From an uncultured delta proteobacterium (GTDB lineage Bacteria > Desulfobacterota > Binatia > UBA9968), in contig CAWJZV010000048.1 of assembly GCA_963847445.1 (NCBI GenBank), positions 96,001 through 160,000 of the forward strand: DNA of 64,000 nt. The letters run 5' to 3'. The notes under the pieces are model-generated. The model had not been told where the DNA came from, ran no database searches, and saw only the letters and a list, made by a program, of their open reading frames with translations. Shown here piece by piece: positions 3,553-8,100 of this stretch (the first letter of the stretch is position 1; each line of letters starts with the position of its first letter). Made by a program: the position numbers and the translations under genes.

Positions 3553-3634
3553 CAGCTGTAGACCGAATAGGTTGTCGGGGCGCAGCAAGCTGCGCCCATT
3601 TCTATCCGCGATCACGCACAAGGAGTCGCGATCT

Positions 3635-4384
3635 ATGTTCACGCTCGATCACAAACTCAGCCCTGACGAATTCATCAAAACCTTCTTCGAAGTCAACCGG
3701 CAGGACCACCAACGCCCGCCCCATCCTTGGGAAGAGCTATTTCGCAACGGCAAATGCACCAAGGAGCAACTCCAGGGTTGGGGCAAGGAACGCTACTATT
3801 TCACCAAGCAGGTGCCGGTGAAGGAATATTCGATCCTGTATAACTGCCCGCACACCGACGTGCGCCGCATGTGGCTGCCCAAGGCCATCGAAGAAGAAGG
3901 CGAAGATCTGATCGGCAAATCCGGCAAACCTCATCCGGAATATTGGCTCGATGTCTGCGTCGGCATGGGCATGGACCGCGAGTTCGTAAAGAACTCCGAG
4001 CCGCTCTACGGCGTCAAGTTCGCCGTCGACAGCTTCGCCAACGCCGCCTTTAAAACCTCCTGGCTCCTCGGCGTCGCCGTCTCCGAAGGCGACGACACCG
4101 CCAAGGCGATGTCGCGCGACTTAGATATTTTTCGTAAACACTACCAATGGGTGCCTGACGACACCCTGACGTTTTACAAACTGCACGCCGAAGTCGATCA
4201 GGAACATGGCTTGCTGCGCAAAGAAATTTTGAAAAAGTACGCCGACACCAAAGAGCTGCAAGAAGCCTGCATCAACGCCCAACTGATGAAAAACAGCATG
4301 CGCTGGGTGATGGCCGACTGCATCTACATGGAGTACGTCGTCCGCGCCGCGAAGTTGAATAACAGCGCCGCGGCAGCGGCGTAG
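3635..4384 (+). CDS. Heme-oxygenase-like/PqqC-TenA-CADD family iron-containing redox enzyme
   Basis: HPWEELF..GKCTKEQLQGW, EEEG..HPEYW, VSEG, FYKLHAEVDQEH: E/H/E/H/D/H ligand pattern of CADD-like di-iron proteins. Confidence 0.75.
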   Translation: MFTLDHKLSPDEFIKTFFEVNRQDHQRPPHPWEELFRNGKCTKEQLQGWGKERYYFTKQVPVKEYSILYNCPHTDVRRMWLPKAIEEEGEDLIGKSGKPHPEYWLDVCVGMGMDREFVKNSEPLYGVKFAVDSFANAAFKTSWLLGVAVSEGDDTAKAMSRDLDIFRKHYQWVPDDTLTFYKLHAEVDQEHGLLRKEILKKYADTKELQEACINAQLMKNSMRWVMADCIYMEYVVRAAKLNNSAAAAA

Positions 4385-4436
4385 TTTTCTACCACAGCTC
4401 CCGACAACGTAACTTGTCCATGTCGAATTCCAATCC

Positions 4437-4541
4437 TGTCATCCCGAGCGCAGCGATGGATCTCGTCTTCTTCGCCACTTACAAAGTCGAGATTCCTCGG
4501 CGGAGTTTATCCAGAGCCAAGCCGAAGCTCTCGGAATGACA
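4437..4541. repeat. REP-like palindromic element (TGTCATCCCGAG...CTCGGAATGACA) with a nested insert
   Basis: Terminal inverted repeats 4437-4448 / 4530-4541; internal gatctcg/cgagatt stem and extra cggagtttatccagagccaagccgaag segment. Confidence 0.6.
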
Positions 4542-5500
4542 ATGTCTTCTCATCCTCGCAATCTCTCGTCATCTCGCACCAGCTCTCGCCGGCGCCGCGC
4601 CCATTCGCATCGCCTACAGCTCCATCAGCGCCGCCATGCTGCCGCTGTTCGTCGCCAAAGACAAAAAGCTTTTCGACAAACAGGGCGTCGACGTTGAAAT
4701 AACCTACATCCGCGGCATCGCCATCGAAGCGTTGATTGCCAACGAAGTGCAATTCACCCGCGCCTCGCCGCCGACCGTCGTTGGCGCCACGCTGCGCGGC
4801 GCCGATCTCGCGGTCATCGCCAACACGATTAACGTGCCGGTGTTTTCCTTGATGACCCGTGCCGACCTGCGGCGTCCGGAAGATCTCCGAGGAAAGAAAA
4901 TCGGCGTGACCAGCCTGGGCGATTCGCCGGATCTCGTGCTCAGCATGATTTTAGACAAGTTCGGCTTGCAGCGCGGCCGGGATGTCACCGTTATGGCGAT
5001 TCGCGGCGGCATGCCCGACATGATCCTCGCCGTCAGCAAGGGTTTCGTCGACGGCGCCATGATCTCGGCGCCCAGCAACTTGCGCGGCATGAAATTGGGC
5101 CTGCGCGAGCTCATCGACTCCGCCGACCTAGGCGTCCCCTATCTCAATTCACCGCTCAGCACCCGGCGGGCCTTCATCAAGACTAACCGCGACATCGTGC
5201 TGCAAAGTGCTGCGCGCTTACTATCAAGGCGTGCAAGAAACCCACAACGACCGCGACGGCGCCATGAAGATCCTCGCCAAATACACCCGCGTCAGCGAGC
5301 CAGAAATCCTCGCCGAGTCCTACCGCATCTACGGCCAGAAGCACTTGCAGAAAACCATCAGCGTCGATTTGGAAGGGGTCCGGCAATTATTGAAAACGCT
5401 GGGTAAAGAAGCCGCCAGCGCCAACCCCAGCCAGTTTGTCGACGCGTCGCTGGTACAGGAGTTGGAGAAGGAAGGGTTGTTTCAGCAGAAGAGCCGGTGA
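4536..5500 (+). CDS. ABC substrate-binding protein, NMT1/THI5/SsuA-like (frameshifted; start approximate)
   Basis: IRIAYSSISAAMLPLFVAKDKKLF..QGVDVE, DLRGKKIGVTSLG; C-terminus in 5207..5500 ending FVDASLVQELEKEG. Confidence 0.8.
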
Positions 5501-5809
5501 CTCAAGCATTCATCCCGGATTCCACTGTCGAAGCTACGCTAACCGTTGAGCGCGGGGCGAGACTAGAGTAGCGAAGGTGCTGACGGTGCTTCAAGCTAAC
5601 GCAGGGGACGTACAATTGCTCGAGGTCTGTGCTTGAGTTTGCCAAGCCGGTGCACGGGATTCGCGGTTAACCAGCGCTTTGAAGAAAAAGCGATTAAATT
5701 TGCCGTGCCTGATAATTCCGCTTTCCTGCAGGCCCATTATCAGGTTGACAGCTGCCCCTACGGTTGATAGCTCTGCAATCGACTCAGCGATTCATTGCAC
5801 AATAAAACG

Positions 5810-6583
5810 ATGGAAAACGTCGACGCTAAATTCGTCCTTTTCACCCAGCCCGGTTGAAGCAGTTGCCTAAGAACGAAAGAGTTTCTTTCGAAAAAAGGCA
5901 TCGACTTCATCGCGCTCGATATCTTGAATGATCCCACGGCATTAGAGCGATTGGGCAAACTTGGCGTTCGCACCGTGCCGGTTTTGGCCAGCGGCGATCA
6001 ATTCATCTTTTGCCAGAACCTGGAAGACGTCGCCGAGTTCGTCGGCTTGCAAGGCAGCGGGCATACGCCCCTCGATCCAACTGCGTTGATGGCGAAATGG
6101 CTCACAGTGCTGCGCGCGGCGCAGCGCTACATTCGTCAGCTCCCGAGCGAACGGCTGGTCGAGCGCGCGATCGATAATCGCGACCGCTCGCTCCGACTCT
6201 TGAGCCACCACATCTTTCGCATCGGCGAGGCTTTTCTCGAAACCGCCATTGACGGCGTCGAATACCGCACCGACAATGCCAACATCCCGCCCGAGGATGG
6301 AAGCTGCACCGCCGCAGAGGAAATTGTCGCCTACGGTGACGGCATTGTCGAGCGACTTGAGAACTGGTGGAGCCAACTCACGGACAGATCCTGCCGGCAA
6401 CCGGTGAAAACCTTCTATGGCACGCCGCCGATGCACCAGCTTTTCGAACGCTCCACCTGGCACTCCGCGCAACACACGCGCCAGCTGATGGCCGTGCTCG
6501 AGCGCTTCGGTATCGAGCCGCAGGGGCGACTCACGGCTGAAGATCTCGCCGGCCTGCCTCTGCCGCAAGGCCTGTGGGAATGA
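5810..6583 (+). CDS. Predicted selenoprotein: glutaredoxin/NrdH-like UxxC domain fused to a DinB-superfamily domain
   Basis: ATG 5810 reads MENVDAKFVLFTQPG-TGA(5855-5857)-SSCLRTKEFLSKKGIDF..., in frame with ORF 5924..6583 (TVPV cis-Pro motif; DinB His motifs SHHIF and WHSAQH). Confidence 0.8.
5858..5900 (+). promoter_or_regulatory. Putative bacterial SECIS hairpin
   Basis: cgaaaga-GTT-tctttcg upper stem-loop, G-containing apical loop ~24 nt after UGA, lower gcct/aggc pairing. Confidence 0.55.
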
Positions 6584-6605
6584 GTAAGAAAATTCGGAGT
6601 ATCTC

Positions 6606-6675
6606 TCGCCAAGGCGCAAAGGCGCGAAGGTAAGAAAAAATATTTCCGAACTTAGCGTCTTTGCGCCTTTGCGGG
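6606..6675. repeat. CGCAAAGG-type periodic hairpin repeat
   Basis: cgccaaggcgcaaaggcgcgaag ... cttagcgtctttgcgcctttgcg; related unit at 12884-12942. Confidence 0.7.
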
Positions 6676-6702
6676 AGTAATTCCCCAAGGAACGGAAAAT
6701 CG

Positions 6703-8100
6703 ATGGGACTGACGCAAGAAGTTGCGCACTTTGTCGCGCGCACACGCTACCGGGATATTCCCAAAGAGGTCGTCCAACTGGCGCGCGGATTCATCCTGGA
6801 TGGACTCGGCGTCGCCTTGGCCGGTTCGACCGATGAGTGCTCGCGCATTGTTCAAACCCAGGTCCGGCAAATGAACGGCAAGGGCGAGTCGTCGATTGTC
6901 GGCACCGCGCTCACAGCGCCGGCAGCCAAAGCGGCGCTGGCCAACGGCGTGGCCGGCCATGCGATGGATTACGACGATACCCAGCTTTCAACTTCCAAGG
7001 AAGCCGTTTACGGTCTCCTGACGCATCCGACCACGCCTGTGCTCGCCGCCGTGTTGGCCATCGGTGAGAAAGAAAAAATCAGCGGCGAGCATTTTGTTTT
7101 GGCCTATCTGTTAGGCGTCGAAGTCGAGTGCCGCATCGCCGATGCGATCAACCCACGCCACTATCAGGATGGTTTTCACTCCACCGCAACCATGGGCGGC
7201 ATCGGCGCCGCCATGGCGGTGGGAAAAATCCTTCGACTCAACGAGCGAAAGTTGATTCAAACGTTGGGCATTGCCGCCAGCATGGCGTCTGGTCTGCGCG
7301 AAAACTTCGGCACCATGACCAAGCCGCTGCACGCCGGACGCGCCGCCGAGAACGGCGTGAGCGCCGCGTTGTTGGCGCGCGACGGCTTCACTGCGGCGGC
7401 GAATATTCTCGAAGCCCGCCGCGGCTTTTTCAACGCCATGGCCGGCGGCTGCGACGAGAGCAAGATTACCGGCCGCCTAGGTTCGCCTTTCTTCATGAAG
7501 GAGCCGGGAATTTCCATCAAGCCGTATCCATCCGGCTCACTCTCGCACCCGGCGCAAGATTTGATTCTCGACCTGGTCAAACAGCATGATCTTAGCGCGG
7601 GCGAAATCGATCACGTCGAAGTCGGCACCAATTCCAACGTGCCCAACGCCTTGATTTATCCGATGCCCAAGACCGCGCTGGAAGGGAAATTCAGCATTCC
7701 ATTCTGCATGGCAATCGCTATCCTCGAGCGCAAGGCCGGCATCGCGCAGTTCCAGGACCGCAAGGTGCGCGACAAGAAGGTCGTCGAGTTGATGAAGCGG
7801 GTGACGCTCTGTGTCGACGATGAACTTGAGAAGCTCGGCTACGATCAGGTGCGTTCGCGGATTCGCATCAGGCTGAACAATGGCCGGGTGATTGAAGGGC
7901 GCTATGACGTCGCCCGTGGACACCCGGAGAAACCGATGAGCTGGGCCGAGTTGGGCGACAAATTTCGCGACTGCGCCGGGCTCGTGCTGGCGGACAAGGA
8001 CGCCGAGACGGTGATCCAATTGGTCGCCCGCATCGAAAAACTGAAAAGCTTAAGCCCCCTGTTCCGCGCTCTGACCAGCGCCGCGCGCCAAGAGTGGTAA
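6703..8100 (+). CDS. MmgE/PrpD family protein
   Basis: AALANGVAGHAMDYDD, HPTTPV, GLRENFGTMTKPLHAGRAAENG, KPYPSG, EGKFSIPFCMA, RGHPEKPMS. Confidence 0.9.
   Translation: MGLTQEVAHFVARTRYRDIPKEVVQLARGFILDGLGVALAGSTDECSRIVQTQVRQMNGKGESSIVGTALTAPAAKAALANGVAGHAMDYDDTQLSTSKEAVYGLLTHPTTPVLAAVLAIGEKEKISGEHFVLAYLLGVEVECRIADAINPRHYQDGFHSTATMGGIGAAMAVGKILRLNERKLIQTLGIAASMASGLRENFGTMTKPLHAGRAAENGVSAALLARDGFTAAANILEARRGFFNAMAGGCDESKITGRLGSPFFMKEPGISIKPYPSGSLSHPAQDLILDLVKQHDLSAGEIDHVEVGTNSNVPNALIYPMPKTALEGKFSIPFCMAIAILERKAGIAQFQDRKVRDKKVVELMKRVTLCVDDELEKLGYDQVRSRIRIRLNNGRVIEGRYDVARGHPEKPMSWAELGDKFRDCAGLVLADKDAETVIQLVARIEKLKSLSPLFRALTSAARQEW

Follow-up and report, generated by a model that had tools for sequence, protein, structure and literature searches.

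The gene and its internal TGA codon

The window analysed here is the whole stretch of 64,000 nucleotides at positions 96,001 to 160,000 of contig CAWJZV010000048.1 (assembly GCA_963847445.1), from an uncultured bacterium of the Binatia, and the gene in question lies at 5810..6583 on its forward (+) strand, as do all parts of the gene described below. We read it as the full coding sequence of a selenoprotein of 257 residues and stop, a glutaredoxin fused to a DinB domain (Grx-DinB), with an ATG start, an internal selenocysteine (Sec) codon and a TGA stop. From the ATG at 5810 the frame reads MENVDAKFVLFTQPG, then the TGA at 5855-5857 (codon 16) and SSC-LRTKEFL, and it is open from there until the TGA at 6581-6583. 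The mechanical list of open reading frames (ORFs) begins this ORF only at the TTG at 5924; that a readthrough frame from ATG 5810 joins it, as the initial annotation had proposed, is borne out by the sequence and the translation. The UGA at 5855..5857 would be read as Sec at residue 16, the first position of a U-S-S-C motif, and the resolving cysteine of this UxxC motif, C19, follows at 5864..5866. A hairpin of the selenocysteine insertion sequence (SECIS) type occupies 5874..5890. The glutaredoxin/NrdH-like thioredoxin-fold domain covers residues ~7-81 (5828..6052) and has its cis-proline at P57, and the DinB/YfiT four-helix-bundle domain covers residues ~88-246 (6071..6547). Within the latter are His134 (6209..6211), the first ligand of a putative metal-binding His triad, and His218-His222 (H-S-A-Q-H, 6461..6475), the putative second and third ligands.

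Homologues were first searched in 41 genomes (the own genome and genomes of the same genus and the same order), and the full-length matches from the genus each contained one internal TGA. The TGA stands at the identical codon, inside FTQPG-TGA-SSC, in 17/17 same-genus loci; one of these, L030, comes from a genome flagged as unpublished (G005), and without it the count is 16/16. Synonymous changes surround the TGA in these loci (CAG/CAA, CCC/CCG, GGT/GGC, AGC/AGT, CTA/CTG/CTT/CTC and AGA/CGA/AGG), and the ATG together with the N-terminal 15 codons is kept in all 17 orthologues with synonymous changes. Because this synonymous variation is found on both sides of the TGA, the 15 codons upstream of it are under protein-coding constraint in this frame. 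A wider scan with one genome per species (GTDB) gave 70 loci, partly from the same genomes as the 41-genome search, so that the two sets are not independent. Three of these loci are without this part of the gene, and codon 16 in the 67 alignable loci is TGA in 44 and TGC or TGT in 23, where the motif is PGC[ST][SA]C. The TGA forms carry the labels Binatia or "Deltaproteobacteria", Burkholderiales or Betaproteobacteria and, in one case, that of a Chloroflexia metagenome-assembled genome (MAG), and a few further MAG labels among them (Udaeobacter, Streptomyces, Chitinophaga) seem to be noise from binning. The Cys forms belong to Alpha-, Beta- and Gammaproteobacteria, among them cultured Cupriavidus, Pseudomonas lini, Caballeronia, Burkholderia, Bosea, Mesorhizobium and Agaricicola. 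Families of selenoproteins are classically recognised by such an exchange of Sec and Cys at a position of the active site. Both Cys homologues and other TGA-containing homologues had been anticipated in the initial annotation, which placed the UGA at the first Cys position of a redox motif; this placement agrees with the Pfam Glutaredoxin match at residues 9-66 and with the 23 homologues that have Cys exactly there.

If a Cys codon had been altered by an error of sequencing or assembly, or had recently mutated to a stop, an ordinary Cys glutaredoxin-DinB gene or a pseudogene would stand at this place. Such an origin of the TGA would suit the many frame breaks in the assembly and the existence of Cys forms in the family. 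However, the breaks in this assembly are indels and not substitutions, as had been claimed for the other errors in the window and as the NMT1-like gene illustrates, being split here and a single ORF of 352 aa in locus L052. As an independent check, the Logan contigs (not raw reads) of four public runs were compared over 5700-6700. The best of these runs contained 0.51 of the sampled words, and thus the source sample is probably absent from them. Record 11 of run X10, a soil metagenome contig, spans 5826-6060 with three differences (at 5942, 5968 and 6028), and because all of these lie outside the TGA, the codon is upheld in an independent assembly. Four contig pieces of the RNA run X15 cover 5828-5910 with 5-7 differences each; these are copies of relatives in an RNA library and are not evidence for transcription of this gene. 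Codon 16 is TGA in 44 loci that were assembled separately and come from several lineages, an independent short-read contig has the TGA as well, and a conserved hairpin is specific to the TGA forms, so that the chance of its origin by an error or a fresh mutation is negligible.

If the TGA were instead a real stop, the locus would yield only a 15-residue peptide and/or an N-truncated protein of 219 aa from TTG 5924. The databases have it so: in a collection of 5.8 billion proteins, the best 120 of 4131 homologues are all N-truncated (202-238 aa), which is the truncation by standard pipelines that had been foreseen, and six inspected homologues of 238 aa start directly after the UxxC. In addition, no clear Shine-Dalgarno motif is visible by eye upstream of ATG 5810. 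A start at 5924, however, loses the active site and half of the thioredoxin fold, although the Pfam match begins at residue 9, and over the 38 codons ahead of 5924 the protein is conserved while the codons change synonymously. The Cys homologues are continuous through this point. The terminal stop (6581..6583), which has no hairpin requirement, is interchangeable in the 42 TGA-form loci compared (TAG 20, TGA 13, TAA 9), whereas the internal TGA is fixed, and therefore TGA is an ordinary stop in these organisms unless the hairpin follows. Taken with these observations, termination at codon 16 seems very improbable.

The downstream hairpin and the Sec machinery

The initial annotation had described a hairpin with a G-containing apical loop about 24 nt downstream of the UGA, and its position and fold are as described. 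The stem pairs 5874-5880 with 5884-5890 (7 bp) around the loop GUU at 5881-5883, and the hairpin begins after a 16-nt spacer, so that the loop G sits 24 nt past the last base of the TGA, with 23 nt between the UGA and the loop. Bacterial SECIS (bSECIS) elements are stem-loops just 3' of the UGA with G or U in a small apical loop and a suitable spacing, and the 7-bp stem, GUU loop and 23-nt distance found here have this form. From the TGA onwards, 61 nt fold at -20.1 kcal/mol (z -2.85), and 1/200 shuffles was as good. The 17-nt block CG-AAA-GAG-TTT-CTT-TCG is identical in 42/44 TGA forms, and the other two have AAG for AAA, so that G-U replaces A-U at a single place in the stem and the pairing is kept. 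At the same positions the 23 Cys forms have AAG/AAA, GAG/GAA, TTT/TTC/TAT/ATG/CTG and CTC/CTG/TTG/CTT, and the last residue varies. Since the Cys forms vary at these codons, the invariance of the nucleotides is not due to the peptide K-E-F-L. Moreover, L039, a locus of another family in the same order with 31% protein identity and the motif PG-TGA-FTC, has an identical 18-nt block at the same distance. Thus, when the proposed SECIS was checked, it proved invariant at the nucleotide level in TGA forms only, and again in this distant relative. In the Burkholderiales forms the fold reaches only -9 to -13 kcal/mol, and the mean minimum free energies of the Sec and Cys forms are alike (-15.7 and -15.3). 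A lower stem (5855-5868 with 5896-5908) was considered and rejected, as it is not conserved across the forms, and the apical hairpin alone is claimed.

Near-cognate or reassigned decoding might also insert a residue other than Sec (Trp, Cys or Gly) at the UGA, without any selenium, and the sequence evidence taken alone is compatible with this. Against it, the gene itself ends in TGA in some loci and in TAG or TAA in others, the aligned residue in the homologues is always Cys, and both a dedicated hairpin and sel genes are present. We consider such decoding extremely improbable here.

The window belongs to contig 48 of a 7.19-Mb assembly in 48 contigs (91.8% complete, 6.9% contamination). Elsewhere in this assembly, selA, selB and selD are next to each other and share a strand (contig 14:191492-195726). 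The selA match scores 569.8 bits, over the cut-off, and a further small piece of it stands in a different frame; selB is found as four pieces covering model positions 2-580; and selD scores 360.3 bits, over the cut-off, and has an in-frame TGA of its own at the active-site position (SAG-U-AAKLGPGDL, contig 14:194917). Of the Sec machinery looked for after the initial annotation, therefore, selA, selB and a Sec-containing selD stood, and an intact selC was not found in this assembly.

The same genome holds a second candidate selenoprotein, a stand-alone glutaredoxin-like ORF of ~76 residues at contig 46:175813-176034 with YTQPG-TGA-GPC-HKEVEFLSQKG. With the first domain of the Grx-DinB fusion it shares 31% identity, and similar small ORFs with an in-frame TGA occur in most of the relatives covered by the 41-genome search.

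Several observations weigh against reading the locus as a working Sec-dependent fusion enzyme. The hairpin has no covariation in the 44 TGA forms and L039, the sequence being invariant, and because the invariance leaves no covariation its structure rests on conservation and thermodynamics. A search of 5780-5960 against Rfam at E <= 10 returned chance snoRNA and miRNA rows only and no matching family; bacterial SECIS elements of this kind have no model in Rfam. The Pfam match of the second domain (DinB_2, PF12867, residues 102-226) scores 23.9 bits, just below the cut-off of 24.8. Among nearest flanking ORFs, neither the window nor the other Binatia loci have a reductase, a glutathione S-transferase (GST), selA or mnmA, and the hint at a reductant described below is confined to other lineages and to 8/68 loci. 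The selA and selB genes and the end of selD, whose C-terminal part runs out of frame, contain frame breaks, which are either assembly indels or real damage. No tRNA-Sec passed the Rfam cut-off in this genome, the best rows being tRNA-Ser, and a tRNA-SeC call by ARAGORN (contig 2:139122-139203), which was first taken as selC, was rejected for its poor cloverleaf and lack of any Rfam match at E <= 1. When the tRNA-Sec of the genus was compared with this genome by BLAST, only its last 28 nt were found (contig 12:77575-77602), about 320 nt from a phage-integrase-family ORF at contig 12:77926-78258.

These last findings would be explained if the family is a selenoprotein family but the trait is defunct or impaired in this organism, with selC disrupted by a mobile element and the sel genes decaying. 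Indeed, the tRNA-Sec remnant resembles a scar left where a mobile element entered selC. Integration into a tRNA gene duplicates its 3' end beside the integrase and normally leaves an intact tRNA at the other end, and an intact copy would then lie at the other end of the element, beyond the assembled sequence. The assembly, in 48 contigs, reaches 91.8% completeness, tRNAs often fail to be assembled, and a clear tRNA-Sec (74-77 bits) is present in 4/5 genomes of the same genus. The breaks in the sel genes look like assembly indel errors because unrelated genes, such as the NMT1-like gene of the window, are broken as well, and the gene itself, its hairpin and the second Sec-glutaredoxin gene are intact. 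Loss of the trait in this organism is thus improbable, with a small chance left to it. The selenoprotein reading itself is highly probable.

Two domains and their relatives

The Pfam Glutaredoxin model (PF00462) matches the readthrough protein with 49.4 bits against a cut-off of 22.9. In an alignment of 33 family members (A1; 13 Sec and 20 Cys forms, down to 36% identity), Glutaredoxin is matched in 33/33 and DinB_2 in 23/33 (E <= 0.001, best 5.6e-7). No NCBIfam model scored above its cut-off, and the best were YruB-type, NrdH glutaredoxin-like and UXX-star models. Profile matches among solved structures (PDB) included cGrx1 (7c10) at 1.3e-15, BC3987, NrdH and the glutaredoxin chain 4tr0, which we take to be that of Clostridium oremlandii, at 2.9e-7. 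The invariant positions of the alignment are G15, U/C16, C19, K23, E24, L26, G52 and P57 in the redoxin domain, L88 between the domains, H134, W186, G204, R214 and the block T216-W-H-S-A-Q-H-T-R-Q225 (ten consecutive columns) in the DinB domain, and G248, L249, P250 and P252 in the tail.

The AlphaFold2 model made from this alignment has a mean predicted local distance difference test score (pLDDT) of 95.0 and a predicted template-modelling score (pTM) of 0.91. Its redoxin part (residues 8-77) is a beta-alpha-beta-alpha-beta-beta-alpha thioredoxin fold with a strand at 8-12, a helix at 17-28 and P57 before the strand 58-61, and after a linker follows a long four-helix bundle (helices 90-109, 128-148, 169-189 and 208-232). 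The high pTM suggests a fixed arrangement of the two modelled domains without demonstrating a contact between them. With VIA-align, the closest DinB neighbour was DR0053 (6iz2; Z 15.7, root-mean-square deviation (rmsd) 2.4, 144/144 aligned; Foldseek template-modelling (TM) score 0.84 on the target), other DinB-like neighbours reached Z 13-15, and the DinB domain of the selenoxide synthase OvsA had Z 11.6; Foldseek also retrieved Bacillus subtilis YfiT (1rxq). For the redoxin, the neighbours were BC3987 (Z 13.4, rmsd 1.6, 77 aligned), cGrx1 7c10 (Z 11.9) and NrdH redoxins (Z 11.1-11.4). As judged from the alignment, H134, H218 and H222 are putative metal ligands, in keeping with the triad of YfiT-type proteins, which consists of one His and an HxxxH. 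The assignment of the second half to the DinB superfamily with a His triad, made in the initial annotation, is thus supported by the fold and by the alignment, where all three residues are invariant (33/33).

A selenoprotein glutaredoxin (PF00462, UxxC) is listed as experimentally verified in tabulations of prokaryotic selenoproteins, which also include stand-alone glutaredoxins, several glutaredoxin-like and UXX-star families and many fusions (PMC13188914, 2026; PMC9312934, 2022). The word DinB does not occur in the main text of either paper (PMC13188914; PMC9312934), while their supplements could still contain it, and among the titles listed by a literature search none was recognisably about a Grx-DinB selenoprotein, although supplements and other papers could hold one. 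One entry of the 2022 table ("hypothetical protein GOS_C, TRX_GRX_like, UxxC"; PMC9312934) could not be compared. The protein described here shares with the selenoprotein glutaredoxins the thioredoxin fold, Sec as the first residue of UxxC and a SECIS directly downstream. Those proteins, however, are stand-alone and ~80-90 aa long, whereas the fusion adds a DinB domain of 170 residues, and the motif here is PG-U-SSC and not of the CPYC type, with cGrx1 7c10, BC3987 and NrdH-type redoxins as the best solved matches.

With the DinB/YfiT thiol S-transferases the second domain shares the four-helix bundle (YfiT 1rxq Z 13.5; BstA 5wk0 of Staphylococcus aureus Z 9.6; the Mycobacterium tuberculosis mycothiol S-transferase 8f5v, with Zn and mycothiol, Z 13.0; the mycothiol-dependent maleylpyruvate isomerase 2nsg Z 12.9) and the pattern of one His on an early helix and HxxxH on the last, which is invariant here. 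The identity to them is only 9-19%, and they use a free low-molecular-weight thiol and are without a fused redoxin. The UXX-star and distant glutaredoxin-like families of NCBIfam have in common with the first domain a small glutaredoxin-like fold and a Sec near the N-terminus, and the matches are weak: the scores fell far below the cut-offs for NF041212 (36.9 against 66 bits), NF041211 (28.5 against 100), NF041114 (14.8 against 72), NF045501 (26.1 against 325) and a further UXX-star relative (26.5 against 97). In those families the Sec is close to the end of the protein, whereas here it belongs to a UxxC centre with 241 residues after it. The NrdH-redoxin model (TIGR02194) was likewise matched below its cut-off (37 against 85.75 bits). 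Given the similar structure (Z 11.1-11.4), the modelled redoxin domain may work like NrdH without being a member of that family.

Canonical GSTs and Escherichia coli Grx2 show the same order of parts, an N-terminal thioredoxin fold with the catalytic residue followed by an all-helical domain, and Foldseek aligned many GSTs over ~250 columns. Membership in the GSTs was rejected, as the rmsd was 10-17 A, the helical domain is a DinB bundle with a His triad, and only 1/33 family members touched a GST Pfam model. The resemblance to GSTs and Grx2 is an analogy of architecture and not membership. The Grx-DinB fusion is a new architecture added to the known thioredoxin-fold UxxC selenoproteins. The annotation of plasmid-borne Cys forms in cultured bacteria goes no further than 'glutaredoxin domain-containing protein' or 'DinB family protein'.

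Neighbouring genes, descent and possible function

The nearest large ORF on each side of the gene was scanned in 68 loci (131 ORFs). In 8/68 loci the next ORF downstream, on the same strand, is that of a pyridine-nucleotide-disulphide oxidoreductase. Five of these eight are of thioredoxin-reductase size (312-340 aa) and stand beside Cys forms in Cupriavidus, P. lini, Caballeronia, Mesorhizobium and Hydrogenophaga, and three are beside Burkholderiales Sec forms (two of 456-491 aa and one fragment). Thioredoxin reductase is the enzyme that reduces NrdH. Because thioredoxin-reductase-like genes adjoin it, which fits its NrdH-like character, the redoxin is probably served by an NADPH-linked reductase of its own in some lineages. 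In 6/68 loci the nearest flanking ORF is a GST gene, selA follows the gene directly in 2/68, and mnmA (tRNA 2-thiouridylase) is directly upstream on the same strand in 4/68, all of them Burkholderiales Sec forms (L081, L083, L084 and L091); in L081 mnmA is upstream and selA comes directly after the gene.

In the window the gene is flanked by an NMT1-like binding-protein gene and an MmgE/PrpD gene, neighbours that are common only to the closest relatives. Conserved neighbours were considered as a functional clue in Binatia and set aside, since the other Binatia loci have GNAT, amidohydrolase or short-chain dehydrogenase/reductase (SDR) genes, and no partner is named. The NMT1/THI5-like substrate-binding gene (4414-5500) is split at ~5206 between frames (ORFs 4636-5406 and 5207-5500); L052, in which it is intact, is the closest relative, and the split here is probably an assembly indel. 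A TENA/THI-4/PqqC-family gene at 3572-4384 and the MmgE/PrpD-family gene at 6703-8100 are also common only to the closest relatives. Directly past the gene, 6584-6690 is a palindromic repeat with 174 matching pieces genome-wide by BLAST, up to 125 of them on the 3' arm, and the contig depth in public metagenomes is 845 on this repeat and ~10 on the gene. The repeat looks like an element of the repetitive extragenic palindrome (REP) or miniature inverted-repeat transposable element (MITE) type.

A tree of 66 rows (IQ-TREE quick search, SH-aLRT support, midpoint root) was built after three fragments (L061, L118 and L119) and two rows with extra frame breaks (L077 and L097) had been dropped. The Sec rows fall into one group in 42/43 cases (support 93), and all Binatia-labelled loci are within a clade of 25 rows (support 99) that is nested among Burkholderiales Sec forms. 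The Chloroflexia Sec row stands apart on a long branch (2.46). The fewest changes between Sec and Cys on this tree are two, and because the root is only a midpoint, the tree gives neither the direction of change (Cys to Sec or Sec to Cys) nor the donor of any transfer.

Taken as a whole, 5810-6583 is very likely a bacterial selenoprotein gene for a glutaredoxin/NrdH-like and DinB fusion, this being the best explanation of the evidence together with the mechanism inferred as follows. SelB would recode the UGA at 5855-5857 to Sec, guided by the hairpin at 5874-5890, and the active site of the N-terminal redoxin would be Sec16-Ser-Ser-Cys19. His134, His218 and His222 would be expected to hold a divalent metal in the DinB bundle, where the domain would perform thiol-transferase-type chemistry on an electrophile or a disulphide, as its relatives do with bacillithiol or mycothiol. 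The tethered redoxin would supply or resolve the reactive selenol or thiol, with Sec16 as the nucleophile or the resolving group. A Sec16-Cys19 selenenylsulfide would then form, and an NADPH-dependent thioredoxin-reductase-like flavoprotein, or glutathione, would re-reduce this bond. By analogy with these relatives, the protein would be a redoxin coupled to a thiol S-transferase-like domain, as had been suggested in the initial annotation. The signs of recoding, both domain folds and the invariant residues were observed, and we only infer the metal, the substrate, the reductant and the contact between the domains. This specific thiol-transferase and Sec-redoxin chemistry is tentative and we consider it rather doubtful.

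A further idea, which we regard as still less likely, is that the fusion is a self-contained GST-like enzyme of detoxification or reduction that arose by a route of its own. The DinB metal centre would here replace the helical domain of GSTs, the enzyme's own Sec would replace a free thiol cofactor or attack its conjugates, and a dedicated flavoprotein resembling thioredoxin reductase would recycle the Sec-Cys pair. Because selA is the direct neighbour in 2/68 loci, Grx-DinB may also be what keeps the sel genes in the genome in some Burkholderiales. If this GST-like idea were true, no enzyme of the DinB superfamily before this one would have done without a low-molecular-weight thiol, and the superfamily would have its first selenoenzyme.

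It seems that an enzyme family widespread in soil and freshwater has been recorded without its active site, because the best 120 of the 4131 database homologues are all truncated at this codon. If the selenoprotein reading is true, a selenoprotein family is added to those known, together with the first member linked to Sec in the DinB/YfiT superfamily, where the function of most proteins is unknown. The Binatia, a poorly known soil lineage, would on the genome sequence be users of selenium, and the glutaredoxin-like TGA frame on contig 46 has the same motif. The Cys forms are found in cultured Pseudomonas, Caballeronia, Cupriavidus, Mesorhizobium and Rhizobium, some of them beside a thioredoxin-reductase-like gene, which makes the chemistry tractable at the bench. 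We take the Grx-DinB gene for a genuine and conserved selenoprotein gene from a family whose annotation is systematically wrong and whose function is to be reached through the Cys forms.

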